A stretch of 64,000 nucleotides of DNA, taken from assembly GCA_964437115.1 (NCBI GenBank), contig CAYTFE010000005.1:34966-98965 (forward strand). Direction: 5' to 3'. The stretch's first letter is position 1. Each line of letters begins with the position of its first letter. Shown here one piece after another: positions 15,001 through 47,721 of the stretch. The stretch comes from an uncultured Fibrobacteraceae bacterium. GTDB lineage: Bacteria > Krumholzibacteriota > Krumholzibacteriia > LZORAL124-64-63. The notes below the pieces were generated by a model. The model had not been told where the DNA came from, did no database searches, and saw only the letters and a list, made by a program, of their open reading frames with translations. The position numbers were made by a program, and so were the translations under genes.

Positions 15001-17117
15001 TTGTTACTGAAAAGTTCAGCTGAAACATTGTTCATTTGAGTTGAATCATAGTTGAGCATGTCGATGCTCAAAGTAGCAGATTCATTTGGATTTACCTGGC
15101 CATCTCCATTAACGCTGAAAGATGAAACCGCAGCATAGTTTGCATTAGCAGAAACAGTGATATCCTGTCGATGAGGAATCATGTCGTGACCTGTAATGGT
15201 CAGCCTCATTGTGCTTCCAGCAAGACCAGACAGTGGCAATGTAATATTACCGCTATCATCTGTACGACCGTGAACTGATCCTAATCCATCATTCAGAAGT
15301 ACAACCATTGCATTTGGAACAGGACTGCCATATGAGTCAAGGGCAACAACATTATATGAAGTTGCAGCTGCTGGAATTTCAGGTGCATTTACAGGAGCAA
15401 AATCACCAGGAAGTGATGTCCACATTTCTGTAGCAGGATCACCCATCAGGTTGTTCCATACACACCAGACTTCAACATTATTAGGTTCAGAAAGATTGTA
15501 GTTGTTGTACATTGCAAGCTTGCCATAAGTAACTGCAGGACCAACTCTGAAATCGCCAGTGTTGATTACGCCATCAGCAATACCTGTGTAAACACAGTTG
15601 TTGTATCGAGTGTGTGTTCCTGTTGTTGCTGTTCCAATACTAGCTACAGCACCACCGTTGGGGGCCCTCAGAAATGCTTCACTATTACAGTTGCCATCAG
15701 ATTCAAAAGTACCTGTATCACAGGTTAGAAGTACTGCAAATGGCAGTTCATAGCCGTTGTCCATGTACATAATGTTTGTAGCATTAAGGCCACTCATACC
15801 CCAGTAACCACGATAACCAAAGAAGGAAATTCCGTCTCCAACTCCATTCATCATTTCAGAGGAGAAGTTTCCACTCCAGACAGTATCGATTTGAGTGTAA
15901 CCAAAGTTGAGTAGTTCATTTTTTACCCATTGGTTTACATAAATAGTTGTGATACCACTGGCAGATGGATCGCCAACAAGAAGTGCTCTGTCAAACCAGC
16001 CAGGATCAGTACCTGTTGGAGGAGTCATCTCGTAAGTTACGATTTTATCGATAACTGTTTCAAGTTCAGTTGTACTGGAAACAGAGATACGCCCCAGGTG
16101 AACATCAGAAAGTATATCGCCACCTTCAAGGCGTGTATAAGTATGATCACCTTCACCACCGTAACCACTGAGGCCTTCAGTATATGTAGGAATTGCAACT
16201 GAACCGTTGGCATCGCCAACAAGAGTTACAAATTCAAGTGGTATCTGCAAAGTGTCATACTGGTTTTGAATATAGTTTTTGATTGAGGCAGTGCTTGTTC
16301 CAGTTTGTGATGTTGTAGCAGTGATTACATTGTAACCCTGTTCTTCACGCCAGCCAACCAGTGGTTTTACAAGATTTGAGATAGTATCATCAGTAGGGTA
16401 GATAATCAGATAAGTACCACGATCTACAGTTACACCTCTGGAATCAGAATCATAGTTGGCAACTGAATTGCGGTACATGTTGTCAAATGATTCGGTAATT
16501 ACTGTGTTGTGCCTTGCTGGTGAATTTGTGCGGTCAACACCTGAGAAGTTAATATCTGCACTGATTCTTGAAGCAATAGTTGCTTTTCCTGTTTCCGGGT
16601 TCCAGCTCAAAGGATTGAAAGTAACTTGAACAACACGCAGGTTACCCATCAACGCAGGGCTGCCAACCTCGGCTGCGCTGAGTTGTGTTGCTCTGCTGTA
16701 GGCAACATTGTCAACTTCAAAACTTTCCCCATCGTTCTGAATAGGGAGAATTTTAACATCGTTGATAACAGTTGAAGAAACAACTGATGACGATGCTGAA
16801 ACTCCGGCAATATCTGGAATAGCTACCAGAGTTGAAAATGTAGGGAGACCAGGCTCGCCATTGGCACCACGGAATTCGCCACCTTTTATGGAGAAATGTT
16901 GCCAAGATTCACCTGCAATTATGACATCTTCTCTGGTAATTTCAGGAAGAGTGAATTCAAGTGTTAAACCATCAGCAGTTTCACTTAAGACAGCCACTGC
17001 TGGTTTAGAGTTGGGAATAGAGTTATCCAGAGCCAGGACTTGCTGCTGAACTTCAGTAGCAAAGGCAGAGATAGACAGTAGTAAACAGAAAAATACGACA
17101 GTTAGTCGAGGGCGCAT
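12054..17117 (-). CDS. Large C25 (gingipain-like) family protein: propeptide, C25 domain, Ig-like and NIDO-like domains, carboxypeptidase-regulatory-like domain, jelly-roll, FlgD-Ig CTD
   Basis: Start ATG 17117 behind GGAGG. Propeptide 'GEPGLP'; 'WREEQGY', 'LVGD', 'LGRIS', 'NLMGDP'; GPDGYGYY; CTD 'NYPNPFNP...WDG...SGVYFYRL...KMLLLK'. The catalytic His position reads YRG; Cys is retained (TCDTG). Confidence 0.9.
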   Translation of the reverse strand: MRPRLTVVFFCLLLSISAFATEVQQQVLALDNSIPNSKPAVAVLSETADGLTLEFTLPEITREDVIIAGESWQHFSIKGGEFRGANGEPGLPTFSTLVAIPDIAGVSASSSVVSSTVINDVKILPIQNDGESFEVDNVAYSRATQLSAAEVGSPALMGNLRVVQVTFNPLSWNPETGKATIASRISADINFSGVDRTNSPARHNTVITESFDNMYRNSVANYDSDSRGVTVDRGTYLIIYPTDDTISNLVKPLVGWREEQGYNVITATTSQTGTSTASIKNYIQNQYDTLQIPLEFVTLVGDANGSVAIPTYTEGLSGYGGEGDHTYTRLEGGDILSDVHLGRISVSSTTELETVIDKIVTYEMTPPTGTDPGWFDRALLVGDPSASGITTIYVNQWVKNELLNFGYTQIDTVWSGNFSSEMMNGVGDGISFFGYRGYWGMSGLNATNIMYMDNGYELPFAVLLTCDTGTFESDGNCNSEAFLRAPNGGAVASIGTATTGTHTRYNNCVYTGIADGVINTGDFRVGPAVTYGKLAMYNNYNLSEPNNVEVWCVWNNLMGDPATEMWTSLPGDFAPVNAPEIPAAATSYNVVALDSYGSPVPNAMVVLLNDGLGSVHGRTDDSGNITLPLSGLAGSTMRLTITGHDMIPHRQDITVSANANYAAVSSFSVNGDGQVNPNESATLSIDMLNYDSTQMNNVSAELFSNNPYINVLSGSIDFGTVAAGATFAGDYDIQISADCPGGSDIMLEMVITSGGDSWTSGVSVEVFGADATFNQATFYVPGNDLDPGESGAVTVSLVNDGNMATGSFTATLTSNSPWVTISDPTGNYGSIPAGGHADNSGDQFAVSVANDCYPGHMANFAIEITYADGSEDTAEFSANVGTASSTDPVGPDGYGYYMFDNTDTDYGFAPVYDWIEISATGSSVGLNDNGWEQDDTRTLDMPFDFQYYGEVFDKVSICSNGWIAPGTTSMQNYRNWALPTAATANGMIAAFWDNLTTDTGGVYYYHDTVNNMFIIEWDNVMNYLNRYQTFQVIIYDPAHYPTDTGDCMIDIQYQAVDNYDTQNGYATVGLQNLDHSDGLTYTYWNQYADGAATLTAGRAIRFMPVAPTAQGTIAGHIDIAMPASRAAAGVTVGVLGSGRIFTSDANGDYMGGVPVGTYDIVAYHASLESDTLYNIDIVEGQTTTCDFTLTDIAGPEFTNTTVYQGSNNTTGPYVIQTNATDFSGIDELHFYYMTSGGTQVYELALADLGNDNYQAEIPGQPIGTRVRYWLTGTDIQGLFSSDPANGPAGSYSFRIDEEMSDYHDMESDTGWTVGAAGDDATTGIWTRVDPNGVEAAGTQIAPEDDATPNPGTMCFITGQSDPGSPQGTEDVDGGATTLLSPVFDLTGYNNVTVSYRRWYTNDTGYGPNEDFWVVEVSDGGAWVELENTTTSDRSWSLQSFALDGLISMSSTVQFRFVASDYNNGSVVEAGVDEFTLGGYTASYDSEDPMVALTAPNGGETFSSGENISVEFTSSDNNSVAGSLVMFSNDRGDSWSQILYSGAADSQVDVNLPMLQSTSARIKVVAFDTQLNMSDDASDGDFTIEDGASAVGDELPRTVMLNGNYPNPFNPSTEISFALPAQTRASLQIYDTAGRLVRTLISGELDAGTHFVTWDGKSDNGNITASGVYFYRLDTERKSITRKMLLLK

Positions 17118-17202
17118 GATGCCTCCAGGTTGCGAATTCCTGAGATGGGGCGGGGTGTGTGCCATCGGGGCGGAATGCAGTAAGTGTTATAATCGTCCGC
17201 AT

Positions 17203-17386: not shown

Positions 17387-18982
17387 ATGTTAAGGAACGC
17401 ATCTTTGATTGCCTTCTTGTTCTTTGCACTGCCTGCTTTGGCAGCAACAATTTATGTCCCAGGTGACTATGCCCAGATTCATGATGCTGTTCAGGCAGCA
17501 AATTCTGGTGACGTAGTCCAGGTCGCTGCTGGTACATATAATGACTGTACACATGAAACCGAAGGCCCTGAAAGTACTCCTGCGTGCGTTATCATGAAAT
17601 CTGGTGTTACTTTGCGTGGCGCTGGCCCTGATGCAACAATTATCGATGCCCAAGGTCTGGGTCGTGGAATATTCATTGAAGGTGTTTCAAACTGTAGTGT
17701 TGAAAACCTGCAGGTTCGCGGTGCATATGCAGCAATTTATGGTGCTGGTATCCTGATTCGCCAGGTTGGCATCGATGTAACAATCACCGATGTATCAATC
17801 ACCGAAAATCTTGATGGCGGGCTGATCTGCTATGACAACGCCTCTCCATTTTTATTGAGATTGCACTGTTACAATAACGAAGCAAAACAGGGTGGTGGAA
17901 TCTCTGTTGAAGAATTCAGTTCTCCAGTTATTGAAAGCTGTATTGTAGAAAATAATGAAGCACCTAGTGGTGCTGGTATTTTCATTCGTAACCAGAGTGA
18001 TGCAACAATTCTCTATTGTACAATTACCGGAAATGTTATCAACGCAGCGTATGGTAATGGTGGTGGAATTTGTGTTACCGGTTCAAACCCTATAATCAGC
18101 GGTTGTGAGATAAATGGTAATACCACTTTGGGTTATGGTGGTGGCGTCAGCTATTTGAATAACTCTGGTGGATCGCTTTCAAGCAGTAGAATCAACGATA
18201 ATATCGCTTCAGGTGACAATTCACTTGGTGGTGGTATTTCTGTTAACGGATCAACTCCTCTGATTGAATACTGCCTGATTGCAAGAAATAGCCTGACTGG
18301 TGTTTATGGCGATGGTGGGGGCGTAGATTGTACCGGAACTCCATCTGCTACTTTTGATCATTGTACCATTATAGAGAATTCAACTGTAGGGTCTGCTGGT
18401 GGAATGTTTTTCCAGTATGGCGCAGATCCTATAATCGAACACAGCATGATTTTGGATTCTACTGCTGGTGAGGCGCTTTATTGCACCTTTGGTGGTACAC
18501 CAACCGTTTCCTGTAGCAATATCTATGGTAATGCTGGTGGCGATGCTATTTGTGGTAATGATACCGGTGACAACATCAGTGCCGACCCTGAATTTTGCGA
18601 TCTTGCAACTTTCACTCCATCGGATGTCAGCCCTGCTGCTGATATTTGTGGCGGATACTGCGGATATATTGGACCTGGTTGTGCGTCTGGCGTAGAAACT
18701 CCTGCGTCGGTTCACCTCCTGGGGAATTACCCGAATCCGTTTAACCCATCAACAACAATAGCTTTCATGCTTGACGAACCTGCTTCTGCTGAGTTAATAA
18801 TCAGGGATGTGCAGGGTAAAGCGGTGAAGCATATCACCCTGGGTGACCTCCCGTCAGGTCGCCACGAGTCCGCTTGGAATGGTCGAGACAACAACGACCG
18901 CCCCGCCGCAAGCGGTGTATATTTCTATGAACTACATGCCATGGGCATGAAACAGTCGAGGCGAATGATTCTAATTAAATGA
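17387..18982 (+). CDS. Right-handed parallel beta-helix repeat protein with FlgD-Ig CTD
   Basis: Signal peptide; 'IYVPGDYAQIHDAV'; repeated GGGI/N-x-A motifs; Cys-rich linker; NYPNPFNP CTD. Confidence 0.88.
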   Translation: MLRNASLIAFLFFALPALAATIYVPGDYAQIHDAVQAANSGDVVQVAAGTYNDCTHETEGPESTPACVIMKSGVTLRGAGPDATIIDAQGLGRGIFIEGVSNCSVENLQVRGAYAAIYGAGILIRQVGIDVTITDVSITENLDGGLICYDNASPFLLRLHCYNNEAKQGGGISVEEFSSPVIESCIVENNEAPSGAGIFIRNQSDATILYCTITGNVINAAYGNGGGICVTGSNPIISGCEINGNTTLGYGGGVSYLNNSGGSLSSSRINDNIASGDNSLGGGISVNGSTPLIEYCLIARNSLTGVYGDGGGVDCTGTPSATFDHCTIIENSTVGSAGGMFFQYGADPIIEHSMILDSTAGEALYCTFGGTPTVSCSNIYGNAGGDAICGNDTGDNISADPEFCDLATFTPSDVSPAADICGGYCGYIGPGCASGVETPASVHLLGNYPNPFNPSTTIAFMLDEPASAELIIRDVQGKAVKHITLGDLPSGRHESAWNGRDNNDRPAASGVYFYELHAMGMKQSRRMILIK

Positions 18983-30998: not shown

Positions 30999-33758
30999 AT
31001 GAAAAATCTCTCTTATGCTATTCTTTTCGTGATGCTTTTATCTTCTGGGGCTGTTTGTGAGCAGTGGATTGAGGATAATGTTTTGATAAAATTTGAAGAG
31101 GGTTTTTTAGAACCTGCACTTTCAGACATTCAACTATTATATAATGTTGAGCTAACAAAATCTCTAGGAGATGATGTATATAAGTTAGTACTACCTATAG
31201 AGTCAGACGAAGTTCAAGTCATGGAAGACATCAAATCACTATGGTCTGCTGAAATAGTATTTGTTGATTTGAATTATTATCATACGATTGATTTTGGCGG
31301 CAGGTCCTCAAATACAATAGATCCGTTACCGGTTGATTGGGAATTTCCATTTTCCTGTTCTGAAACATCACAAGAACAGTGGGGGCTGGCTGATAATTTA
31401 TTGAATGTGTGTGATGCTTGGGAGTGTACAAAAGGAACTAGTGATGTAGTTGTGATTGTGATTGATGCTGGAGTTAATAGAAATCATTTAGAGTTACAGC
31501 CGTATGGCAGAGTGCCTATGGAGGGAATATCTTTTTCAGACCAAGAGTGGTTTCATGATCTTAGCGGCCATGGGACGGCAATAGCAAGTATTATTTGGGC
31601 AAATCATGATGAATACGGAATAAGCGGAGTGGCTCCTAATGTACGGTTGTGGTCTTGGCAAGTTGGAATACCAGGTACTCAATATGAAGCTCAATACCCG
31701 AGTGATTTATTTATAACCGCTTTAGATACTCTAGATGCAATATCTCAAGAAAATTGTGATACTAATTTTATTGTTAATATCTCCATTGATTATGGATCTA
31801 CAATAAATAGTAATACTGCAAATATTATTCGTGAGAAAATGGAATCAATTGTTACCAACAGTGGGAATGTGCTTTTTGTTGCTGCTAGTGGGCAAGATAA
31901 TAGTTGGCGCCCGGGTGATGAACATTTAATAATCGGCAGAGTTGTTGTTCCAGCTTCTTTTTCTGGAGCTGGAGATCAGTTAGGCAACTTCTATTCTCAA
32001 GAGGTTGATAACAATACAATTGCAGTAACTTCTATTACTGCTTCTTCTTCATGGTTTGAGCCATTTGGTTGTAATACTTATGATTACAATCTTGTGGCAC
32101 CATTCAATCAAAATTGGGCTTATGCTCTTGGGGGTGAGTCAGGAACGGCTATTGATACTTGTAGTGTGATTGTTGACTGTGTTGCTCCCGGTGGTGGCCA
32201 CGCTTGGCTCAATCCTCCATATTCAGTTGAAATCAATGGAATTGGAGTTTATGTAGCTGATTTCGAGGGTGGTCATTATTGGAAAACTGGTAATTCTCTT
32301 GCAGCTCCTCATGTTGCTGGCGTTGCCGCTTTGGTGTGGTCCCTTACTCCAGGAATGAATGCAGATGTAGTAAAAGACATTATTCGGAGATCTAGTAATA
32401 GATCCTATATTAATTATAAAGATGATTTTAGTCATAGTCACGAATGTGTTTTTCATGGTATTTCATTGCACAAAGATCATGAGTTTGTATCAAGTTATGA
32501 GGATAATTGCCCTCATCCTGAACCAGTAATAGAAGGAGGATGGACACCGGGTGTGTCTTCAACAGGGAGGAGTCAGTCTTACTTGGATAATTATTCTAGT
32601 GTAGTGATGGGCTCAGGAATGGTAGACGCGTATATGGCCGTTTTGGCTGCTGAATATCAAAAAACATTCCTCATGTATTCAGGTGGAATTATTGATGAGC
32701 CTATTGTGATTAACGATGTAAGAGCAATATATCTATTCGGTGATATGCTTATTGAAAATGGCGGTTCTTTACGCTTATACCCGCCAGACGGGGTTTCTGA
32801 TGTTCGTATTATTGTTATGGATGTAGATGAAAATGATATATTTGGAAATGAGTTAATTAGCATTCATGTTGGTGATGGCGGCAGCATTACGTGTGATGGT
32901 GATATTTATTTTTATTCAGAACATGGTCCTGCTTCTACAGATCAAACATGGGAAGGCCTTGTATTAGAACAGGGTTCTGCGGTTAGTATTACTGGAGACA
33001 ATTTTATCAAAATCAGAAATTCCAATATCGGCCTACAGGATGAGGGGGGTCATACTATATCTAATCCGGTTTATATTGAGGATTGTGGATTTGGTTTATC
33101 AATTTCAGGAGATTCAGTTTATTCAGATATTCATGTCAGCGATTGCGATTTTGGGGTAGAAATCTCTAATAGTAACATAAGTCCTGAATTGACAGGTATT
33201 ATCGAGGATATAAGTGTTGGAATCCTTATTAACAGCAAAAATGAGATTTTCTTGAATTTGAAAAATTTAGAATGCACAGGAGGCTATTATGGGGTGAATG
33301 TTTTGAATGGAAATAATATTACTATTAAAAATGGTTATTTTGAAGGCTCAACTATACATGGTATTTATGCTATGAATTCAACAGGAGTTGTTCTAACAGA
33401 TATTGAAATTAGAGATGTTTCACAGGATGGAGTAAGACTTGATTCAAGTATTGCTCAATTGAAAGCTTTGTCGTTGATAGATAATTCTATAATAGCAGTA
33501 TCTTGTTTTGGCACCAGCGAAGTATCCATGAGTGATTGTATAATATCAGGAGGTTCTAACGGGCTGGCTGTTTTTGATTCATCGATAGCAGATCTTGAGT
33601 CTGATGGTGGAGATAACGTAATGAGTGATGTTAGTTATTATTTTGTCACAAATTTGAATTCACCAGAATGTATTCCTGCACAAGGTAATATATGGAACAG
33701 ACATTCATGTATTGACCCTTCCAAGAAATTGGGATGTGTTGATGATGGCTGTCAATAG
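30999..33758 (+). CDS. S8 subtilase-like protein with C-terminal beta-helix region (atypical active-site motifs)
   Basis: Signal peptide; VIDAGV (Asp), HGTAIASII (His), GNSLAAPHVAG (Ser); beta-helix-like repeats at the C-terminus; no CTD. Confidence 0.8.
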   Translation: MKNLSYAILFVMLLSSGAVCEQWIEDNVLIKFEEGFLEPALSDIQLLYNVELTKSLGDDVYKLVLPIESDEVQVMEDIKSLWSAEIVFVDLNYYHTIDFGGRSSNTIDPLPVDWEFPFSCSETSQEQWGLADNLLNVCDAWECTKGTSDVVVIVIDAGVNRNHLELQPYGRVPMEGISFSDQEWFHDLSGHGTAIASIIWANHDEYGISGVAPNVRLWSWQVGIPGTQYEAQYPSDLFITALDTLDAISQENCDTNFIVNISIDYGSTINSNTANIIREKMESIVTNSGNVLFVAASGQDNSWRPGDEHLIIGRVVVPASFSGAGDQLGNFYSQEVDNNTIAVTSITASSSWFEPFGCNTYDYNLVAPFNQNWAYALGGESGTAIDTCSVIVDCVAPGGGHAWLNPPYSVEINGIGVYVADFEGGHYWKTGNSLAAPHVAGVAALVWSLTPGMNADVVKDIIRRSSNRSYINYKDDFSHSHECVFHGISLHKDHEFVSSYEDNCPHPEPVIEGGWTPGVSSTGRSQSYLDNYSSVVMGSGMVDAYMAVLAAEYQKTFLMYSGGIIDEPIVINDVRAIYLFGDMLIENGGSLRLYPPDGVSDVRIIVMDVDENDIFGNELISIHVGDGGSITCDGDIYFYSEHGPASTDQTWEGLVLEQGSAVSITGDNFIKIRNSNIGLQDEGGHTISNPVYIEDCGFGLSISGDSVYSDIHVSDCDFGVEISNSNISPELTGIIEDISVGILINSKNEIFLNLKNLECTGGYYGVNVLNGNNITIKNGYFEGSTIHGIYAMNSTGVVLTDIEIRDVSQDGVRLDSSIAQLKALSLIDNSIIAVSCFGTSEVSMSDCIISGGSNGLAVFDSSIADLESDGGDNVMSDVSYYFVTNLNSPECIPAQGNIWNRHSCIDPSKKLGCVDDGCQ

Positions 33759-33768
33759 GAGGAAAAGA

Positions 33769-34458
33769 ATGTTTAAGACTACAATACTATTACTAATGCT
33801 GTTTGTTGCAACATCTCTTTGGGCAATAACTATTACGCCGGCCAATTATCTTAATAATAGCGCTGTCTGTATTGACCTGGAGGATGATTATGAAGATTTT
33901 AGTGGAATACTAATTGTCGAGCTACCGCTATCTGTTTCCGATAGTGTTGAATATGGTGAAATGAGAGCAATTCGAGTTATTGCTGAAGGTTCAAGTGATT
34001 TAATTGAACAACTTGGGTGTATTGGAAGTAATACATATCCCATTGAGTTGAGTAACTATACTGACAGTCGTGTGTTTTTTGTATTCTCACCGGAAGCAGA
34101 TTTGAATCTTTCACAAGAGAGAGCAGAGATTGTAGTATTAGCTATGAACTTCAATAATGATGTTAATGAATTTATTATTGATCATAGTTGTAGTGGTGAT
34201 AATATAGATAAACCTGTTGCATTATTGGTTGTCAAAGATGGTAATATTTCACTTGCAGCAAATAGTGCTCAAAGTGACTATGCTGAATTATCTCTTTTTG
34301 ATATTCGTGGTCGTTTTGTTTCAAAGGTGACTAATGCAACAGGAGAAATATCAATGAATATCAATGAACATAGGTTGTCATCAGGTGTATATTTGTATAT
34401 TATCAATAATACAACTGGGGTTAAGGTTGCGTCTGGGAAGGTTGTTATAGTTCGATGA
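33769..34458 (+). CDS. Small secreted protein with T9SS-type CTD
   Basis: Start ATG 33769 behind AGGAGG; signal peptide; 'LSLFDIRGRFV...LSSGVYLYII...KVVIVR'. Confidence 0.78.
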   Translation: MFKTTILLLMLFVATSLWAITITPANYLNNSAVCIDLEDDYEDFSGILIVELPLSVSDSVEYGEMRAIRVIAEGSSDLIEQLGCIGSNTYPIELSNYTDSRVFFVFSPEADLNLSQERAEIVVLAMNFNNDVNEFIIDHSCSGDNIDKPVALLVVKDGNISLAANSAQSDYAELSLFDIRGRFVSKVTNATGEISMNINEHRLSSGVYLYIINNTTGVKVASGKVVIVR

Positions 34459-35003
34459 AAACTACAGGGTGCATAATATTTTTATTTGTCTCACATGTAA
34501 TGATTATTGATGCATTTGCTTTAACATTAGATGTGATTTCAGACGTGACAGTAGATACCCAGTGGATTGATTATTATTATTTCAGTCTTAATGAAGTATT
34601 GTCTGAGGTCACAGAAGTAAGACTAGTTGCTCATGTTAATATTGCAGAGGTGCCAGCAATTCATAGTGATGATTTAAACATGACACTTCCTTGGGGCTTT
34701 AGCCTTTATTGTGTAATTGATGGAGATTCTTGGGAGAGTATTGGGACAGAACAATATTTTCATTCAACCTCAAGTGGTGATTATTATGTTGATATTATTT
34801 TTAATGGTAACGAGGGATATGGATTTATGCTCGACTCTGAAGAGCTTCGCCTGATATCTGGTTTTTTACCATTGAGTAGACCTCCTGGGTGGAATTTTAT
34901 CACACACGGAGAGATTTATATCGATTATTTCACTTTGGAAATTAATGGTGTTCTTCCAACTGATGAGACATCAATGGGTCGACTTAAGTTGTTGTTTAGA
35001 TAA
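34455..35003 (+). CDS. Secreted hypothetical protein, tandem paralog 1 (tail GVLPTDETSMGRLKLLFR)
   Basis: Signal peptide; conserved SDVT...FSL..V.SEVT.VR core shared with the next two genes. Confidence 0.8.
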   Translation: MKTTGCIIFLFVSHVMIIDAFALTLDVISDVTVDTQWIDYYYFSLNEVLSEVTEVRLVAHVNIAEVPAIHSDDLNMTLPWGFSLYCVIDGDSWESIGTEQYFHSTSSGDYYVDIIFNGNEGYGFMLDSEELRLISGFLPLSRPPGWNFITHGEIYIDYFTLEINGVLPTDETSMGRLKLLFR

Positions 35004-35012
35004 TTAGCAAGA

Positions 35013-35585
35013 GTGAGGTTAGGCTCTGTGAAATTCGTAAGAATTATTATAACTATGTTAATGCTATCTATTTCGTTTGTCGCAGTTGCCTATGCTACTA
35101 CAGTTGAAGTGTTGTCGGATGTAACAATATATACTTCTTCTGGATATGGTCATGAGTTTTTCAGTCTTGATGGAGTTATGTCTGAAGTAACCGATGTTAG
35201 AGTGGTAACTCATATTAATGTGATACATCTTCCAACAATTATTAACCCTGAGACAGGTGAAGTTCTACAATGCGGCATTAAATTAGGCTGTGGGATTTCC
35301 AGGGAAGTATCTCCATACCCAGCAATTGGTGAATCTGTAGAGTTTTATTCATTGGGAGAGATGTCTGTGGATATGGAAATGTCCGGTTACTGGGGTTATG
35401 ACTTTATGACTCTAGGATATGTTCTTGATGCATCGGTCAGGTTCAGCAGTGTATCGCCTTATGTGAATGGTTGGTATCCTTATGATGTTGGAGAAGTCTA
35501 TGTTGATCACATAGATTTCGTAGTTGATGGTGTGTTACCAACTGAGCAAACATCCTTTGGTGGTGTAAAGATGTTATTCAGATAG
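35013..35585 (+). CDS. Secreted hypothetical protein, tandem paralog 2 (tail GVLPTEQTSFGGVKMLFR)
   Basis: Same core and tail. GTG start; an alternative GTG lies a few codons downstream. Confidence 0.8.
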   Translation: MRLGSVKFVRIIITMLMLSISFVAVAYATTVEVLSDVTIYTSSGYGHEFFSLDGVMSEVTDVRVVTHINVIHLPTIINPETGEVLQCGIKLGCGISREVSPYPAIGESVEFYSLGEMSVDMEMSGYWGYDFMTLGYVLDASVRFSSVSPYVNGWYPYDVGEVYVDHIDFVVDGVLPTEQTSFGGVKMLFR

Positions 35586-35608
35586 CTTCTTTATGGAGGT
35601 ACGTTTCA

Positions 35609-36166
35609 ATGAAAACAGCTAACAGCATAATTCTTTCAATATTGATATCGCTTGTTCTATGTGTTGATACTTCTGCTTTAACAATGGAAGTAGCTTCGGA
35701 TGTTACTCAAAATGCTTTATGGTCAGAATCTACATATTTCAGTCTTGATGGAGTAATGTCAGAGGTAACAGAAGTCAGGCTCATTGCTCATATTGATATT
35801 ATAGAACTTCCTACAATACGCAACTACGAGCTGAATGAGACACTTCCCTGGTACTTAATTATTAGTAGTATAATTTGGATAAATTCCAGCAGAGGATTTG
35901 TTTCTGCAAGTCAGACTTTTACCCCCGATTCAAATGGTGAATACTATGTCGATATTGTTTTTGAAGGTGGTTCTGGTTATGAATTTATGACTGAAGTGCC
36001 AGAGATACAGTTATTGACTTTTTTTGATGCTCTTCTTCCAGGGGATCCTAATTGGCAAATTGAAACTTATGGTGAGATTTACATCGATTATATAACTGTA
36101 GAAATTGATGGTGTACTACCAACCACGCATACATCCTTCGGTGGTGTGAAGGCGTTATTCAGGTAG
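35609..36166 (+). CDS. Secreted hypothetical protein, tandem paralog 3 (tail GVLPTTHTSFGGVKALFR)
   Basis: GGAGG RBS; same core and tail. Confidence 0.8.
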   Translation: MKTANSIILSILISLVLCVDTSALTMEVASDVTQNALWSESTYFSLDGVMSEVTEVRLIAHIDIIELPTIRNYELNETLPWYLIISSIIWINSSRGFVSASQTFTPDSNGEYYVDIVFEGGSGYEFMTEVPEIQLLTFFDALLPGDPNWQIETYGEIYIDYITVEIDGVLPTTHTSFGGVKALFR

Positions 36167-36167
36167 C

Positions 36168-37946
36168 TTATTTTAACAACGTCAATCTGCCAGCCTGCTC
36201 AAACTGATCACTTGTAATTCTGAAGAAGTAATTTCCCGATGCAACTTTGTTTCCACCATTGTCATCGCCATTCCATCTCATCTGGTGAGTTCCTTCAATC
36301 AAGTAATTATCAATCAAAGTTGCTACCAACTGCCCCGAAATATTGTATACAACAACCGATGTTCTGCCAGGCCTGTTCTGAGAAAACTGAATTGTTGTCG
36401 ATGGGTTGAATGGATTCGGGTAACAGTTTACATCGGAAATTATCTGTCCAGGAATCTCATGCGGGACATTTGTAATGTCGCAGTATACAGGCAGTGCACC
36501 AATCAGACCACAGTCACCGTTATTTTGTTCTGAACAGGGGGAGCCGCAGAGAAGGAGTGGCAATTCAACAGTGTCATCGAACATTGGATCAAGACGCAGG
36601 TTGTTATTGATTATTAGTTGATCAGATATTCGATCAACCCAGTCACCGCCAGAGTTTCCAAAAATGTTACTGCATGAAATTGTGGCAAGGCCATCTTCAA
36701 TAATCTTGATACTCTCTCCAGCGGTCGAGAAAGCAATGATGGAGTTGTTTATATCAGCTGAAGATCTATATGTGAGAAAAATGCCTCCACCTTCTGCAGC
36801 GGAATTGGAAGTCAGCGTGCAGTTCAAAAGACTGATATTGGAGAAGTAGCATCGTATTGCGCCACCACGATTTGTTGTTGTGTTGTATTGGAAAACTGAC
36901 CTGGAAATATCAGCTGTTGAGTTGACGAAATTGATTGCCCCGCCACGATTTTCAGAACTGTTATTGATGAAATTGCAATCTGTTATGACTGCATCGGAAT
37001 TCCAGCAGTCAAATGCTCCGGCGCTATATTGCGTTGCAATATTTTGCACAAAATCACAGTTTCTCAAATAGGGGCTCGAGTCACTGGCAGAGTAGATTGC
37101 ACCACCGGAGTTGGCAATGTTGTTGAAAAAAGTACAATTCAGAAATTGGGCAGAAGCACCATATTCATAATAAATGGCAGCACCGGTTCTGGCCTGGTTG
37201 AAAGCGAAATAACAATTAAGGAATGTTGATGCATCGCCGCCGACTGAGTAAAACCCACCAGCACCAGCTGCTGTGGAGTTGGAAAGGAACTCACTGCCGA
37301 TTACTGAGATCTGGCAATTGTTGAAGAAGAATCCTCCGCCATCGCCAAGTGTGTTGTCAGTTGTGAATGCAGTGTTTTGAGAAACTTCACAGTTGCGAAT
37401 GGTGCCAATGCATTCTTTTGCCCAGATTGCGCCACCAGCTGCCCATAGTTCGTTTACAGCTCTGTTTGACCTGAACTTGCAGTCAACAATATCGAGAGTA
37501 CTTTCAAGTGCGCCAAGTCCGGCACCAGCAAAAGCAGTATTGTTGATGAAGGTACAGTTTTGGATAGAGATATTGGAATTAAGTGCGCGCACACCTCCGC
37601 CAATTGCATCGATCCATCCTTCAGAAACGTAGCCATTGCGGAATGTGATATTTTTGATTGTTGTCAGCTCGGAAAGATTGGAACAGTCAATAATTCTGCC
37701 CTGATTATCAGCAGAAATTGTGACATCGGCGGCGTTATCTGTGTCACCAGAAAGAGTAACTCCCGCTTTCATGATTATTCCAGATTCAGAATAGAGTCCG
37801 CTGGCAATTACAACTGTGTCACCTGAAGTTGCTGCATCGATACCGGATTGAATATCTGGAAAATCAGCAGGCACAAAAAAAGTTGATGACAGGCATTGGC
37901 TTGAAATCAGAAGCAGAGTTATAATTAGGGAACGTATATTTATCAT
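36168..37946 (-). CDS. Right-handed parallel beta-helix (GGA[I/F]-repeat) protein with FlgD-Ig CTD
   Basis: 'FFVPADFPDIQSGID'; many 'N.A..GGAI' repeats; CYPNPFNP CTD ending LTLLK; paralog of 17387-18982. Confidence 0.88.
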   Translation of the reverse strand: MINIRSLIITLLLISSQCLSSTFFVPADFPDIQSGIDAATSGDTVVIASGLYSESGIIMKAGVTLSGDTDNAADVTISADNQGRIIDCSNLSELTTIKNITFRNGYVSEGWIDAIGGGVRALNSNISIQNCTFINNTAFAGAGLGALESTLDIVDCKFRSNRAVNELWAAGGAIWAKECIGTIRNCEVSQNTAFTTDNTLGDGGGFFFNNCQISVIGSEFLSNSTAAGAGGFYSVGGDASTFLNCYFAFNQARTGAAIYYEYGASAQFLNCTFFNNIANSGGAIYSASDSSPYLRNCDFVQNIATQYSAGAFDCWNSDAVITDCNFINNSSENRGGAINFVNSTADISRSVFQYNTTTNRGGAIRCYFSNISLLNCTLTSNSAAEGGGIFLTYRSSADINNSIIAFSTAGESIKIIEDGLATISCSNIFGNSGGDWVDRISDQLIINNNLRLDPMFDDTVELPLLLCGSPCSEQNNGDCGLIGALPVYCDITNVPHEIPGQIISDVNCYPNPFNPSTTIQFSQNRPGRTSVVVYNISGQLVATLIDNYLIEGTHQMRWNGDDNGGNKVASGNYFFRITSDQFEQAGRLTLLK

Positions 37947-38051: not shown

Positions 38052-39074
38052 ATGAGCATCAACAGAAAACAGTTCACAGTTCTAATCTACGTATTCTTGT
38101 TAGTGATTCTATCCCAACTTGCTTTTGCTCACGGTATTTCCGATTCCGATAAGCAGGCTGTAGTTGAGGGTGGCAATCTGCGCTTCATCTCTCTTGGCGC
38201 AAGTCACATGCTCACTGGCTATGATCATCTCCTGTTCCTGTTTGGAGTAATCTTTTTTCTGACCGGGTTCAGGCAGATTGTAAAGTTCATTACTGCGTTT
38301 ACAGTTGGACATTGTATTACACTGGTTGCAGCAACATTTATGGGGATTTCTGCAAACTATTTTATTATCGATGCCTTGATTGCTCTGACAGTTGTCTACA
38401 AAGGCTTTGATAACCTCGATGGATTCAAAAAATTATTAAGAACAGCGTCTCCAAACTTGCTGCTGCTTGTTTTTATATTTGGCCTGGTACACGGCTTTGG
38501 ATTGTCTACCAGACTTCAACAACTGCCACTTGGCACCGATGGGCTGCTTCTCAAAATAATGTCATTCAACCTGGGTGTAGAAGTAGGGCAGATAGTTGCA
38601 CTTGCAGTAATGCTGGTGCTGTTGAACTTGTGGCGCAAAAGGCCATCGTTCAAGAGATTCAGTACAGTCTCAAATGTTGGGCTTGTGATTGCTGGTCTGG
38701 GGCTGTTTGCGTTTCAGATGCACGGATTTGCAAATGAAGAAATAGAATGGCAGGATACAATCACTGTCACAGTTCCAGCTGAAAACGGAATCGAATATAA
38801 AGTTTATGCTTACGAAGGTAATGAATTTGAATTTGCCTGGCAGACAGACTCAACAGAACTCTATTTCGATTTTCACGGCGAACCTGCTGGTGACACAACC
38901 GGTTATTTCAAAAGCTACAAAATTGCAACAAGTACAACTGACGCTGGTTCACTTGTTGCGCCGTTTGAGGGTATTCATGGTTGGTATTGGCAGAACAACA
39001 GTACAGAAGATGTTGTTGTGACGGTTAATGTCAAAGGGGAGTACCAGAGGATGGATACCAGCCCTGCCGAATGA
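38052..39074 (+). CDS. HupE/UreJ family membrane protein fused to a soluble C-terminal domain
   Basis: 'LGASHMLTGYDHLLFL', 'TAFTVGHCITL', 'FGLVHGFGL', 'FNLGVEVGQ'; C-terminal 'FDFHGEP...HGWYWQN' domain. Confidence 0.85.
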   Translation: MSINRKQFTVLIYVFLLVILSQLAFAHGISDSDKQAVVEGGNLRFISLGASHMLTGYDHLLFLFGVIFFLTGFRQIVKFITAFTVGHCITLVAATFMGISANYFIIDALIALTVVYKGFDNLDGFKKLLRTASPNLLLLVFIFGLVHGFGLSTRLQQLPLGTDGLLLKIMSFNLGVEVGQIVALAVMLVLLNLWRKRPSFKRFSTVSNVGLVIAGLGLFAFQMHGFANEEIEWQDTITVTVPAENGIEYKVYAYEGNEFEFAWQTDSTELYFDFHGEPAGDTTGYFKSYKIATSTTDAGSLVAPFEGIHGWYWQNNSTEDVVVTVNVKGEYQRMDTSPAE

Positions 39075-39095: not shown

Positions 39096-41804
39096 CTATC
39101 TGACCAGACTCAATCTTTGAGTCACAGTTTTTCCGAGGCCATCAGTCATCTTTAACATGTAAGTACCACTTGCAAGGTTACTGCCACTGTCTGTCTTGCC
39201 ATCGAAAGTTATGCTTCCAGAAACTTCAGTTACAAGATCGTTATGCAGTGTTCTGGTTTTGCGACCCATCATATCAAACAACTCGATAGTCAATTGTCCA
39301 GGCTCGGAAATTGTCCAGGAAATTGATGTGTGCGGGTTGAATGGATTTGGATAGATGGAAATCTGTGGTTCAACAATCACAGGCAATTCAACGGCAGTTA
39401 TTAAGTTGCCATCGTCAAAGGTTACATCATCAAAGAAGAAGCCTGTGCCAGATGTAGCGTCATCACTCTTGAGTACAAGTCTGAACTGGATTGCAAAATT
39501 GGCGTACTCTTCGATGTCAAACACAGCGCCTTGCCAGCCGTTGCTGTTGCCTGACCATGCAGGTTCCTCATCGAAAGCGCTGACATTGCCGTTGTATCCA
39601 TTCAGCGGAGTAATTGAGTGCCATTGGCTGTCAGACAATATCTGAAGTTGAACACCATCGACACCTTCTTCAGTGTCACACCAGTAATGAAGTGAAAGAA
39701 AAAGATGATCATAGGTGTAGAACGTGAAACTTGGTGCATAGACAATATCGTAGCTATCGGGGTCATAGCCGGTACCATCTGTGCCAACTCCCCAGCACTT
39801 GTTACTGCCGAAACCAGAGTTTGGTCCAGCTTGAGGAGTACCCCAGGTCCAGCTGTCGTCAGCGCATTCATACGATTCCCACCACAGCTCGAAGGTGTTG
39901 TCAGCCAATGCGAGTACAGTATAAACAGTTGATCGTTCGTTTGTGTCAACAGAGACCAGGTCAACTCCAAAGCCAGGTTCGTTGTCGAACAGCAGGTCAT
40001 ATGTGCCACCAACTGGTACACCACTTATCACAAATGAGCCGTCGCCTGCACTGGTGTCAGCAACCAGAGGTGAACCGACAACTGTACAGCGTGCATTTGA
40101 AGCAGTAGTACCATCTTCAGTTCTGATCATTCCTGAAATGTCGGTTGTCGGAATCAGAGCCAGTGTTGCATCAACAACAATGGTGTTGCTACTCAACAAA
40201 GTTACAACAGAATCAAGGGGAGTGTGGAAAAATGAACGAAACTCCAGAGTTTGAGGGCCATCGACAGTTGTGATTGAGTAAAATCCGGCTGCATCAGTTG
40301 TGGTTGTTGCACCAGTGCTTTGAACGGTAACTGTAACGTCTTGAACTGGTCCACCAGTATCAGATACAGTTCCTTCTACAGTACCGGTACCGGACTGAAT
40401 AGATTCCCAGGCTGCCAGAATATCAGGGCGAGGTCCAACATGATTCACACCGTTTTGAGGTGATCCTGTTTCTATCAGTACATCACGAATTGAAAATGCA
40501 TCAAGTGGCGTTCCCGATGAATCTTTTATTATTCCCTGCAACGCAACAACAGAACCTACAATGATTGGCGATGCACCACTGGTTCCACCAAAATTACTGG
40601 TGTACCATTCTTCCTCATTGCCACCCTGTAAGTCACCATAACCACAAGTAACAATGCTTGAGCCCCAGCCATTGACATCAACACGAGCACCGTAGTTGGT
40701 AAACCATTCCGGGTATCCGCTACTGGTTGCGGCACCACACATTATTGCCCCGGAGTCACGAACTTCGGGATCAAAAGTTGTCCCATAAATGGGGTCGTCC
40801 AGGTTCTGCTCACCATTACCAGCAGCTTCACAGACAATACGCCCGTTTGCAGTGATAACCTGTATAGCATCAAAGTTTTCCTGCCAGTATTCCATCGGTA
40901 CATAACCAAATTGGCCGGTACCATTTGAGTTTGGGCCAGGAGCATGAAGTTCGATAAGAATTACATCACCAACATCAAGAGCCAGCGAAGCTGTATAGAG
41001 TGCAGTAGCGACTGAAAGGGCTGCAATTGATACTCCACCAACTTCACATTCAGGAGTAATACCTCTAACGCCAAACCCGTTGTCACTACCACGAATCTCA
41101 CCAAGAACTGCAGTGCCGTGATCACGCCAACTTTGATCAGGGTATTGACCACCGGCAGTATAGAACGGTACAGGCAAATCTTCGTGATCCCAAAGCCATG
41201 CACCTTCAATGTCCAGCATCTGCATGTCGCCACCGCGAGCTCCAGGAATTCCATCAACCGCAAGTGCATTTACACCAACTGGTGGTGCACCAAGGTAACC
41301 CTGTTGACTTTGGTAGTTGGGAGTACGAGGTCCTCTTGGGGCAAGAATTTCAGGACCGGTGTAATCGCCGGTAAATGCATCGAAACCAAGCGATGCAGGA
41401 ACAGCTACCGGTTCCAGAAATGCAGTCTCGACATTGGGATCTTGGAGGATTTGTTCCAGCAGTTGCAAAAGTTTTTCTCTGTTCTGTGTGCCGGGATCAA
41501 TCACACCGTAACGATTCAGGTTTGGTAGTGTATGACCGACAATTTGTTCGCCACGCAATCGATCAGCATCAATAATTTCCATGCTTGTTGAAAAGCGTCT
41601 TGCCACCATTCCAAATGCTGTAGACAAGCCTCTCTGGCCAACAACGATACCGGACTCATCGCTGTATTTAACAACAATCTTGCCGGTGGGCGCCATGGTT
41701 TGCATCGACATAACCTGAGATTTTTCAGGTACAGTTCGTTGAAGTTCAGTTGCAAAAGATGAAGCCGCGAGAAGAAGCAGAAGAATTAGAATTATTTTAC
41801 GCAC
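39096..41804 (-). CDS. S8 serine peptidase with carboxypeptidase-regulatory-like repeats, jelly-roll domain and FlgD-Ig CTD
   Basis: DIEG (Asp), HGTAVLG (His), AAGNG, GGTSGASP (Ser); IYPNPFNP CTD ending LSLVR; GTG start. Confidence 0.88.
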   Translation of the reverse strand: MRKIILILLLLLAASSFATELQRTVPEKSQVMSMQTMAPTGKIVVKYSDESGIVVGQRGLSTAFGMVARRFSTSMEIIDADRLRGEQIVGHTLPNLNRYGVIDPGTQNREKLLQLLEQILQDPNVETAFLEPVAVPASLGFDAFTGDYTGPEILAPRGPRTPNYQSQQGYLGAPPVGVNALAVDGIPGARGGDMQMLDIEGAWLWDHEDLPVPFYTAGGQYPDQSWRDHGTAVLGEIRGSDNGFGVRGITPECEVGGVSIAALSVATALYTASLALDVGDVILIELHAPGPNSNGTGQFGYVPMEYWQENFDAIQVITANGRIVCEAAGNGEQNLDDPIYGTTFDPEVRDSGAIMCGAATSSGYPEWFTNYGARVDVNGWGSSIVTCGYGDLQGGNEEEWYTSNFGGTSGASPIIVGSVVALQGIIKDSSGTPLDAFSIRDVLIETGSPQNGVNHVGPRPDILAAWESIQSGTGTVEGTVSDTGGPVQDVTVTVQSTGATTTTDAAGFYSITTVDGPQTLEFRSFFHTPLDSVVTLLSSNTIVVDATLALIPTTDISGMIRTEDGTTASNARCTVVGSPLVADTSAGDGSFVISGVPVGGTYDLLFDNEPGFGVDLVSVDTNERSTVYTVLALADNTFELWWESYECADDSWTWGTPQAGPNSGFGSNKCWGVGTDGTGYDPDSYDIVYAPSFTFYTYDHLFLSLHYWCDTEEGVDGVQLQILSDSQWHSITPLNGYNGNVSAFDEEPAWSGNSNGWQGAVFDIEEYANFAIQFRLVLKSDDATSGTGFFFDDVTFDDGNLITAVELPVIVEPQISIYPNPFNPHTSISWTISEPGQLTIELFDMMGRKTRTLHNDLVTEVSGSITFDGKTDSGSNLASGTYMLKMTDGLGKTVTQRLSLVR

Positions 41805-46138: not shown

Positions 46139-47131
46139 ATGTCTAGCAACAATATCCAAAAGATTCAATCAGCCAGAAATGCTCACGAAAAACTAGTGAT
46201 ATTGCTTGAGAAAATGCGCAAATATGAGCAATCTGCTCTGCTTGTTTTTTCAGAAATATTGCATCAAAAACTGTATGAACAGTTGGGCTATTCGAGCATG
46301 CACAACTACGCAACAGATGCTCTGAAAATCCCCAGATCAACTGCATTCCACTACATCAGTTTGACCAAAAAACTTGAAGCTTTGCCTGAAACCAGAAAAG
46401 CAGTTGAAAGTGGCGAGCTTGGCTGGACTAAAGCAAAAGAAGTTGTAAAAGTTGCAACTCTCGAAACAGAAAATCAGTGGGTGGCAGAAGCCAAAAAGTC
46501 TACCCGGGTAGACTTTATTGAGAAAGCAAAACAAGCCAAGCAGATTGCGAAAAATGAATCAAAACAACAACCTGATCTGATTCCTGTTGAATCACTCCCA
46601 AAAGCAGAGCCCAAAGTTTCAACATCGTTGAGTCTCTCAGTTGAACAGATGGAGCGATTCAATGCGTTGATTGAAAAGATGCGCAAGCAAGGCGAAACCG
46701 GAACTCGTGAAGAATTGCTTATCAAAGCACTCACAGATTCAACTTCTGAAAAGTCCACGCGCGTGGAATCTGCTCCATCAACCCAAATCGTAATTCGTCA
46801 TTGCCCCGATTGTGGAAAAGCTGAGACCGGAGCTGGTGAAATCAGCCAGAATGACCTTGAGAAAGCGTACTGTGATGCTAGTGTGCTGGAAAATGGGAGA
46901 AACAAATCGACAATAAAGCCCTCAGTGAGGCGTGAGGTTTTGAGTCGAGACAATCACACTTGTCAGGGCAAAGGTTGTAGCTCAAAAAGGTATCTGGAAG
47001 TACATCACAAGGTGCCGCGGTCAGCTGGTGGGAGTAACGATGAGTCAAATCTGATAACTCTGTGTTCGGCTTGTCATAGTTTTGTTCATAATCGGCGAAG
47101 TAATCTGATTGATACGGTTTGTAGTATATAG
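46139..47131 (+). CDS. HNH endonuclease with long helical (DUF222-like) N-terminus
   Basis: C-terminal 'CQGKGC..LEVHHKVPRSAGGSNDESNLITLCSACH'; internal CPDC; AT-rich upstream region with TTGATT-16-TATATT. Confidence 0.85.
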   Translation: MSSNNIQKIQSARNAHEKLVILLEKMRKYEQSALLVFSEILHQKLYEQLGYSSMHNYATDALKIPRSTAFHYISLTKKLEALPETRKAVESGELGWTKAKEVVKVATLETENQWVAEAKKSTRVDFIEKAKQAKQIAKNESKQQPDLIPVESLPKAEPKVSTSLSLSVEQMERFNALIEKMRKQGETGTREELLIKALTDSTSEKSTRVESAPSTQIVIRHCPDCGKAETGAGEISQNDLEKAYCDASVLENGRNKSTIKPSVRREVLSRDNHTCQGKGCSSKRYLEVHHKVPRSAGGSNDESNLITLCSACHSFVHNRRSNLIDTVCSI

Positions 47132-47194: not shown

Positions 47195-47284
47195 ATGCTG
47201 GAGTTTATTTACGCTGTGAAGCCGACGCGCTTGGAAATGCTGAGCGAGGGTTCGACTGAGAATGAGTCTGCTCAACATCGTTAG
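47195..47284 (+). pseudogene. 5' fragment of a YciI-like gene
   Basis: MLEFIYAVKPTRLEMLSEGSTENES resembles the N-terminus of YciI-like proteins, then runs into inverted CTD sequence and stops. Confidence 0.5.
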
Positions 47285-47721
47285 CAACAAGTTTCAGATA
47301 GTAAACACCCGATGGTACAGCGGCACCATTGTCATTGTACCCGTTCCATACTTCCTGGTGTTGTCCAGCTCCCTGTGGTTGGTCCACAATAACAGCAACC
47401 AGTCGGCCTTTTGCATCAAAGATCGATAAGTTGACCATACCTGGTTCACGCAAATCATAGCTCAAGGTTGTTTGCGGGTTAAAAGGATTTGGATGACAAG
47501 ACCAGAGCTTGGTAGCTAATACTGGAGGGATATCGGGGATTGGATCCGGATCTGGTGAGATCCCTGTTGCAGCATCAAGATTAAACAATTCACTCAAAAC
47601 CCATATCCAGGCTCCTGATTGACAAGTAGGGAAGGTCGCGGGATTCATTCTGACTGTTTGCAGAAACATTCAGAACAGAAATCAACAGCAAGGCAATAAT
47701 GAGGATACTTTTTTTCATCAT
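47263..47721 (-). pseudogene. Relic of a CTD-bearing secreted protein (signal peptide plus CTD, core missing, 3' end lost)
   Basis: ATG 47721 gives MMKKSILIIALLLISVLNVSA... with a stop at 47590. Another frame gives linker + CHPNPFNP...WNG...SGVYYLKL, lacking the terminal K/R strand. Confidence 0.65.

Follow-up and report, generated by a model that had tools for sequence, protein, structure and literature searches.

Three short genes, placed in tandem on the forward strand of a 64,000-nucleotide stretch of DNA from an uncultured Fibrobacteraceae bacterium (contig CAYTFE010000005.1; the whole stretch is called the window below), encode related proteins that all terminate in nearly the same 18 residues. 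This ending is the subject of the present analysis. We found it to be a real, non-random and widespread C-terminal tag, absent from the libraries and papers searched, and the three genes to be divergent, lineage-specific carriers of it. They occupy positions 34455–36166 and, as the sequence-only reading of the window had described, their open reading frames (ORFs; 182, 190 and 185 amino acids, aa) begin with signals for general secretory (Sec) export and share the ending GVLPTxxTS[FM]GxxKxLFR followed by a stop codon. The features of this locus are as follows.

34455..35003, + strand: paralog 1, small Sec-exported protein of an orphan family, 182 aa, tentatively a beta-sandwich
34455..34520, + strand: predicted Sec signal peptide of paralog 1, MKTTGCIIFLFVSHVMIIDAFA, with putative cleavage before L (read from the sequence, site placed by the AxA rule)
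34947..35000, + strand: tail of paralog 1, GVLPTDETSMGRLKLLFR, the most divergent copy, matching the consensus except at position −9
35013..35585, + strand: paralog 2, 190 aa as counted from GTG 35013
35028..35096, + strand: predicted Sec signal peptide of paralog 2, MKFVRIIITMLMLSISFVAVAYA, with putative cleavage before T (read from the sequence)
35529..35582, + strand: tail of paralog 2, GVLPTEQTSFGGVKMLFR
35609..36166, + strand: paralog 3, 185 aa, with a GGAGG ribosome-binding site in front
35609..35677, + strand: predicted Sec signal peptide of paralog 3, MKTANSIILSILISLVLCVDTSA, with putative cleavage before L (read from the sequence)
36110..36163, + strand: tail of paralog 3, GVLPTTHTSFGGVKALFR

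In alignment paralogs 2 and 3 are 37–50% identical to paralog 1. The conserved N-terminal core and the divergent middle reported earlier are seen in pairwise identities of 44–55% and 24–40%, respectively, while the C-terminal core together with the tail gives 43–60%. The similarity extends to the DNA: motif TTCAGTCTTRATGRAGT, already pointed out by the sequence-only reading, is present in exactly three copies (at 34581, 35160 and 35738) and in none of 100 shuffled sequences, and two conserved blocks recur across the paralogs with a period of about 580 nt. AxA-type sites follow the hydrophobic N-terminal signals, as judged by eye (AFA/L, AYA/T and TSA/L in paralogs 1–3). Translation of paralog 2 probably starts at GTG 35028, giving a protein of 185 aa, because its orthologs (P0003 and the one at locus L035) start with MKFVK; GAGG is found 9 nt upstream of this codon. 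Paralog 3 has an ortholog (P0001) with 90% identity. No match of the three proteins to the C-terminal domain (CTD) of type IX secretion system (T9SS) cargo (TIGR04183, PF18962, FlgD_ig-like) was obtained with Pfam and NCBIfam models at E ≤ 1. The codon pattern of the tail described below matches the window twice, in paralogs 2 and 3, and never in shuffled sequences; paralog 1 is missed because it has Met in the position of Trp or Phe. Further tail-bearing ORFs were found neither in the 64 kb of the window nor in about 25 kb of extra sequence of the same lineage, and the locus was not found in any RNA run searched.

To estimate how common this ending is, one genome per species (596 Gb in total) was scanned for the codon pattern T-S(TCN)-[FWLC]-G-x-h-K-x-L-[FY]-R-stop. 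By an estimate from its information content about 13 matches are expected by chance, while at least 119 stretches were found, with 124 matches listed. About 110 of the latter end ORFs of 120–630 aa with mutually unrelated upstream sequences. Among the matches listed, Eisenbacteria account for 27 loci, Krumholzibacteria for 17, Fibrobacteraceae for 5, Coatesbacteria for 4, Zixibacteria for 3, Gemmatimonadota for 2, Latescibacteria and Udaeobacter for one each, and metagenome-assembled genomes (MAGs) without a taxon label for about 50. Nine listed matches in Bacteroidales, Pelagibacteraceae, Clostridium, Chloroflexi, Anabaena and similar organisms all end ORFs of no more than 58 aa. Their number is about as chance predicts and they serve as an internal control of it. 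The single Udaeobacter match (locus L016, a contig of the verrucomicrobial MAG Candidatus Udaeobacter) is a genuine tail-bearing ORF of 374 codons from stop to stop; either it is a binning error, or the tag reaches beyond the FCB (Fibrobacteres–Chlorobi–Bacteroidetes) group. A separate metagenome scan for the F-G-G variant gave four stretches, of which one holds the same family as in the window, two come from unrelated high-GC organisms and one has no long ORF.

The 123 tail proteins among the matches listed represent at least 28 Pfam families with no relation to one another, so that the tail is not confined to one family, and the statement of the earlier reading that related tails end many proteins of these candidate phyla proved correct. 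The carriers include Beta_helix (11) and Chlam_PMP (6) proteins, cupredoxins, NHL propellers, CHRD, CBM96, LTD and DUF2341 proteins, pectate lyases and an ExeM/NucH-like nuclease; relatives of ScyF, a PEP-CTERM protein in cyanobacteria, were recognized by NCBIfam among those of the NHL type. The tail itself was covered by no Pfam or NCBIfam model, even when isolated tails of 42 residues (n = 10) were searched at E ≤ 10. No paper on the motif was found in the literature, although most subscription journals were outside the search and a prior description is possible. The earlier statement that no characterised machinery is known for these tails agrees with the outcome of both searches, which gave neither a characterised family nor a paper.

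The tag is composed of two parts: a Pro/Thr/Glu-rich linker with the consensus c-x-V-P-T-E-x and an 11-residue unit T-S-W-G-x-[VIL]-K-[AS]-L-[YF]-R, which extends to the free C-terminus. Across 116 distinct tails the consensus from position −18 reads C/G, P/V, V, P/A, T/V, E, x and then T-S-W/F/L-G-x-V/I/L-K-A/S-L-Y/F-R, with Trp in 83, Phe in 23 and Leu in 10 of them after T-S. The tails of the window (GVLPTxxTSFGGVKxLFR) agree with the consensus throughout, position −9 being occupied by the rarer Phe or, in paralog 1, by Met; between −18 and −14 all three have G-V-L-P-T against C/G, P/V, V, P/A, T/V of the consensus. Defined as T-S-[WFL]-G-x-[VILM]-K-x-L-[YF]-R-stop, the tag is exact in paralogs 2 and 3, and paralog 1 differs from it by its Met.

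T, S, G, K, L and the final R are fixed by the scan pattern. Positions outside the pattern are, however, also narrow: A, S or G stands at −4 in 96 of the 116 tails, and V, P, T and E prevail in the linker. An unbiased picture comes from one large family of carriers that was collected by homology and not by the pattern (named L102 after its locus), in which Trp, Lys and the final [YF]R vary least and are kept almost without exception. Gly at −8 and Ala or Ser at −4 would place a small-xxx-small pair on one side of the predicted helix, a hint that the helix may pack closely against a partner. The terminal position was assessed with a relaxed motif that does not require the stop codon. Over 864 kb it gave 142 matches, 140 of them with a stop codon directly behind; of the remaining two one has a single residue before the stop and the other is a chance match. 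Internal occurrence of the tail, which would have spoken against a terminal signal, was therefore not observed. An N-terminus of the Sec type was recognized by a simple heuristic in 87 of 103 tail ORFs against 236 of 1,674 other ORFs (14%), and there was only one lipobox among the 103.

A few natural variants bear on how strictly terminal the tag must be. One sub-clade of the L102 family (P0129, P0148, P0155, P0168 and P0178) has three additional residues behind the motif (…ALYRGAR, …YRGSR, …YRGKQ), and one Eiseniibacteriota protein, listed beside the second tail gene of locus L045, has a one-residue insertion, TTWGRLKSLLFR. Extended and inserted forms can be considered as tests of this requirement performed by nature.

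In carriers with known folds the tag lies beyond the passenger domain. In a cupredoxin with the tail the alignment to solved amicyanins reaches chain residue 104 of 105, and 18 more residues follow; likewise, the amicyanin and CHRD models stop 18–21 residues short of the C-terminus in tail proteins. For protein P0118 AlphaFold2 produced, from an alignment of 111 sequences, a model with a predicted local distance difference test score (pLDDT) of 91. It comprises a beta-sandwich at residues 28–220 (a jelly roll similar to CBM16/22), an unstructured linker at 221–230 and a helix W231–L237 with pLDDT about 78. Since the tag follows complete amicyanin and CHRD domains, and appears as linker and helix in the model of P0118, it is best described as an appendage and not as a strand of the passenger domain, with a linker and probably a short amphipathic helix. 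The possibility that it is an integral strand, which the earlier reading had named as fatal for its proposal, finds no support in these data.

For the proteins of the window the picture is less clear. Neither Pfam nor NCBIfam matched the three paralogs. Only four clusters of their family were found among 5.8 billion proteins, every one tail-bearing, and a profile search of 1.84 billion representatives also gave 4 real clusters. Remote homology to two giant Ig/PKD adhesins, suggested by the profile search, was discarded as the matches were short, repeat-like and uninformative. The source organism of the family was found in marine metagenomes only, and L035 represents the same family in a MAG from Saanich Inlet. 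AlphaFold2 on a window protein (7-sequence alignment) returned a beta-sandwich of low confidence (pLDDT 58), with residues 177–184 drawn as a strand at pLDDT below 50. With this model Foldseek found weak matches only (jelly-roll/CBM16, fimbrial lectin and phage receptor-binding domains, TM-score ≤ 0.38). The paralogs may thus be viewed as small Sec-exported, non-lipoprotein proteins with a tentative beta-sandwich fold, forming an orphan family in one marine lineage, and the ligand-binding role previously assumed for them is plausible as a tentative suggestion.

The relation of the tag to the CTD of type IX cargo was studied with a hidden Markov model of the CTD built from the same genomes as the tail loci. 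It recognized 28 CTD ORFs in 27 tail loci and 9–10 in the window, and none of the 123 tail ORFs. Homologous passengers, on the other hand, may have either ending. At locus L102 two adjacent divergent genes are 57% identical over the signal peptide and passenger (222 residues), and one protein ends in a 19-residue tail, DMPVSTTQTSWGRLKALYR, while the other ends in a CTD of about 100 residues. The family of this pair comprises 1,598 homologs, and endings were classified in the best 120 of them. About 100 bear the tail (80 by the strict pattern and about 20 as variants with TTWG, WA/WS, K-to-Q, ...YH or the three extra residues YRG[AST]R), 17 have a FlgD_ig/T9SS CTD (16 of about 324 aa and one 306-aa fragment; one of the 17 is named by NCBI as a T9SS type A sorting domain protein), and three end in a transmembrane helix with RRR. 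The last three (P0134, P0144 and P0146) read ...P(A)SGPWG/AAGTWG, hydrophobic helix, RRR, with a W-G pair at the start that resembles the tag. A further case is the ortholog, at L035, of a 592-aa PMP/beta-helix protein with a CTD encoded next to the paralogs. It is 26–33% identical to tail-bearing beta-helix proteins from other phyla, and the alignments end just before the CTD in one partner and just before the tag in the other. Thus, among the tail ORFs listed the tag never occurs together with a CTD, yet replaces it on homologous passengers, which substantiates the alternation proposed by the earlier reading. Sorting signals typically show this "choice of anchor" behavior.

One alternative is that the tail is a structural or family-specific feature, such as a terminal strand, an oligomerization element or a tag for periplasmic degradation, and no localization signal. 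The strand drawn with low confidence at residues 177–184 of the window protein and the occurrence of the tail on three paralogs only in about 90 kb sampled of this lineage agree with it, and C-terminal peptides are the usual ligands of PDZ-domain proteases. We nevertheless consider it very improbable. The tail is present on at least 28 unrelated folds, beyond complete solved or modeled domains, and is swapped within one family for the recognized sorting endings, CTD or transmembrane anchor; moreover, it is difficult to see why a degradation tag should be preserved on hundreds of proteins in different phyla.

Another explanation requires neither receptor nor translocon. The 11-residue unit might form an in-plane amphipathic helix, with Trp, Val/Ile, Leu and Tyr/Phe on one face and Lys and Arg flanking it, and tether the protein to a membrane leaflet or to anionic lipopolysaccharide (LPS). 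The mixture of W, Y/F, L, K and R is typical of interfacial helices. The helix W231–L237 was modeled with moderate confidence, and the hydrophobic moment of the tag is 0.44–0.53 at 100–120 degrees, above the 0.33 of shuffled sequences. Cupredoxin and CHRD carriers would suit a tethered periplasmic location, and since one family alternates between tag and transmembrane-helix ending, tethering is plausible as their common theme. However, the moment reaches the same level at the periodicity of a strand (0.46 at 170 degrees) and does not separate helix from strand, and the unit makes less than three helical turns. The sequence is constrained far above the needs of amphipathicity, across phyla and at least 28 unrelated families. 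Many carriers belong to typical surface or extracellular families (PMP/beta-helix, pectate lyase, CBM96, LTD, ExeM/NucH-like nuclease), and the commonest alternative ending is a secretion domain, not an anchor. An anchor free of machinery is the main competitor of the reading preferred below, though a less probable one.

A third explanation arises from the genes that surround the tail genes. In the window these are:

30999..33758, + strand: S8 subtilase with a beta-helix, 919 aa, opening the co-oriented run; no CTD and no tail
33712..34458, + strand: co-oriented gene directly upstream of paralog 1, 248 aa, with a T9SS type A CTD
36168..37946, − strand: convergent 592-aa PMP-repeat/beta-helix protein with a T9SS CTD

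The ATG of paralog 1 overlaps the stop codon of the upstream CTD gene (ATGA). A tail gene lying directly downstream of a CTD gene on the same strand, often abutting or overlapping it, was registered in the window and at no fewer than 12 other loci (L007, L028, L030, L041, L051, L052, L059, L063, L067, L081, L096 and L122), and tandem arrays of two to four tail genes at 16 loci. This order could reflect functional coupling or mere clustering of genes for secreted proteins. All-against-all clustering of the ORFs from 110 loci revealed no non-cargo family recurring beside the tail genes as a candidate receptor.

Functional coupling would be natural if the tag were a minimal type IX signal, that is, the stripped-down last strand of the CTD (motif E, "C-t."), read by the T9SS or a shuttle of the PorV type, perhaps jointly with the co-expressed product of the upstream CTD gene. 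Besides the gene order, the abundance of CTD proteins in the FCB-type genomes that have the tag, including the window, is in line with such an origin. Both endings combine Lys, a few hydrophobic residues and Arg or Lys, and T9SS transport strictly requires the C-terminal motif of the CTD, in which a Lys of beta7 is conserved (PMC11285876). To this extent the earlier remark that the tails end like the long CTDs holds as an approximate resemblance; the spacing K-x-L-[YF]-R, however, differs from [KR]-h-x-h-h-[KR] in the CTDs of the window. Recognition by the T9SS is also reported to need a folded beta-sandwich of 70–100 residues with the L-beta3-beta4 loop and the PorM-binding motif D (PMC11285876; bioRxiv 10.1101/483123), whereas the tag has neither this loop nor motif D, is matched by no CTD model and is predicted to be a helix, not a strand. 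CTDs tolerate C-terminal extension (PMC11285876), while the tag is almost always exactly terminal, and adjacency is weak evidence as secreted-protein genes cluster anyway. Altogether this makes a minimal type IX signal improbable.

We are therefore inclined, with a modest preference, to regard the tag as a modular envelope sorting or retention signal which would be read by a common envelope factor after Sec export. Such a factor is suggested by the constraint acting across phyla and families, the terminal position, the small-xxx-small pair and the exchange with sorting endings. In this scheme the passenger would be exported by Sec with removal of its signal peptide, a conserved envelope factor would read the exposed C-terminal 11-residue unit, and this reading would fix the final location of the protein, so that the tag would play the same part in gene architecture as the 70–100-residue CTD. 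We infer from the sequences that the tag is a sorting signal and that its reader is a protein, and the "minimal export/processing signal" of the sequence-only reading may be accepted in the same conditional sense, as may any particular route of the carriers. A more far-reaching version can be entertained tentatively, as possible but less than probable: the tag may be the address label of an undescribed pathway in the FCB phyla outside Bacteroidota (Eisenbacteria, Krumholzibacteria, Coatesbacteria, Zixibacteria, Latescibacteria and this marine lineage). This pathway would possess its own receptor, translocon or attachment enzyme, and would work in parallel to type IX, recognizing an 11-residue helix rather than a folded domain or a motif with a transmembrane anchor.

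Several points weigh against a sorting signal with a dedicated reader. Six proteins of the L102 family have three residues beyond the motif (YRG[AST]R or YRGKQ) and a few tail variants end in ...YH, ...FE or ...FD; because of these rare endings a free terminal Arg is not absolutely required. In about 90 kb sampled of this lineage the tail occurs on the single family of the window, and AlphaFold2 modeled the window protein itself poorly (pLDDT 58 overall, under 50 for the tail). Reading by a factor is deduced from the constraint on the sequence, and the composition is that of a weak interfacial amphipathic helix, so passive binding to membrane or LPS could explain why it is used. Finally, some carriers, for instance cupredoxins, would work well in the periplasm without crossing the outer membrane.

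Some other properties of the window were registered along with this analysis. Between 30000 and 36000, across the S8 peptidase, the CTD gene and the three paralogs, GC content is 0.36–0.40 against 0.43–0.47 in the flanks, and seven independent assemblies of related strains (loci L001–L006 and L035) break inside or just upstream of paralog 1. The dip in GC content and the assembly breaks suggest a strain-variable or repeat-tangled island. At 38052–39074 (+) a gene kept beside the paralog locus in all related contigs encodes a membrane protein of the HupE/UreJ type, extended at its C-terminus by a soluble region of about 110 residues. Cargo genes with T9SS CTDs are dense (12054–17165, −; 18979–22599, +; 3218–5002, +; 5985–8267, −; 39096–41804, −), and their set includes two gingipain-like C25 peptidases (1,703 and 1,206 aa), a papain-like C1 peptidase, a CotH-LTD protein and an S8 subtilase. 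The C25 peptidases were considered as PorU and rejected, as the PorU model matched them in their CTDs only; none of the T9SS core genes (SprA/Sov, PorKLMN, PorV, PorU) was found in the window. Directly after a C25 peptidase gene there are genes of poly-gamma-glutamate synthesis, namely PgsB (TIGR04012, E 5e-121) and a poly-gamma-glutamate system protein (TIGR04332), at 22606–25332 (+). An ORF of 154 codons at 47205–47669 (−), adjoining an HNH endonuclease gene (46139–47131), contains a clear CTD (NPFNP...GVYYLKL) with the last strand replaced by the unrelated …THSQSNPRSAFPSASASQRK and looks like a truncated or frameshifted CTD remnant.

The LPXTG motif, the PEP-CTERM signal and the T9SS CTD each led to a secretion or anchoring machine and are now routine in the prediction of surface proteomes. 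Several phyla with few or no cultured members bear the tag on a large, so far unannotated part of their predicted secretome; a single passenger family has about 1,600 homologs, most of the closest 120 being tag-bearing. A profile of the tag would improve the annotation of MAGs by separating the CTD and tag classes of exported proteins in the same organisms, and would offer a starting point in the search for its putative reader. Should the tag suffice for sorting by itself, so short a signal (11 residues) would make a useful tool, and if it has its own machinery, this would be a new pathway. For the window it means that three orphan paralogs become predicted envelope or surface proteins, co-oriented with a gene of T9SS-CTD cargo.

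Among known systems, the C-terminal anchors of PBP5/DacA and PBP6 of E. coli, MinD and FtsA resemble the tag as helices of about 10–18 residues, rich in aromatic or aliphatic residues and Lys/Arg, the helix of the tag being a predicted one. They are, however, conserved within their own families only and only as an amphipathic pattern, while the tag has a near-fixed sequence over dozens of unrelated families in several phyla. The beta-signal of outer-membrane beta-barrels, which is read by the BAM complex, is likewise short, conserved and C-terminal, with an aromatic residue beside the end. It forms, however, the final strand of the barrel, with Phe or Trp as the usual last residue, whereas the tag is attached behind soluble domains (beta-sandwich, beta-helix or propeller), has Arg as its last residue and is predicted to be helical. 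Closer in their distribution are the LPXTG/sortase, PEP-CTERM/exosortase and GlyGly-CTERM/rhombosortase signals, which are short, modular, C-terminal and lineage-restricted, occur on unrelated secreted proteins and obey the same "choice-of-anchor" logic. In these signals a motif is followed by a transmembrane helix and a basic cluster, and a dedicated membrane enzyme cleaves them, while the tag has only 7 residues after TS[WF]G, with one Lys, and no membrane-spanning hydrophobic stretch. No NCBIfam CTERM model matches the tail proteins, and to our knowledge no processing enzyme is known for the tag. The nearest parallel is the T9SS type A CTD (TIGR04183/PF18962, FlgD_ig-like). Like the tag, it stands at the very end of Sec-exported proteins of the FCB group that are not lipoproteins and mostly belong to the surface or the extracellular space, is present, as is probably the tag too, in many copies per genome and has a Lys-hydrophobic-Arg/Lys ending; both are found on the same passenger families and are exchanged between close paralogs. 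The CTD, however, is a folded seven-strand beta-sandwich of 70–100 residues with motifs B, D and E, while the tag comprises 11–18 residues, predicted to form a linker and a 7-residue helix, lacks motifs B and D and is matched by no CTD model. Probably the tag is a new kind of protein address label, used in several uncultured bacterial phyla in place of the large T9SS domain.

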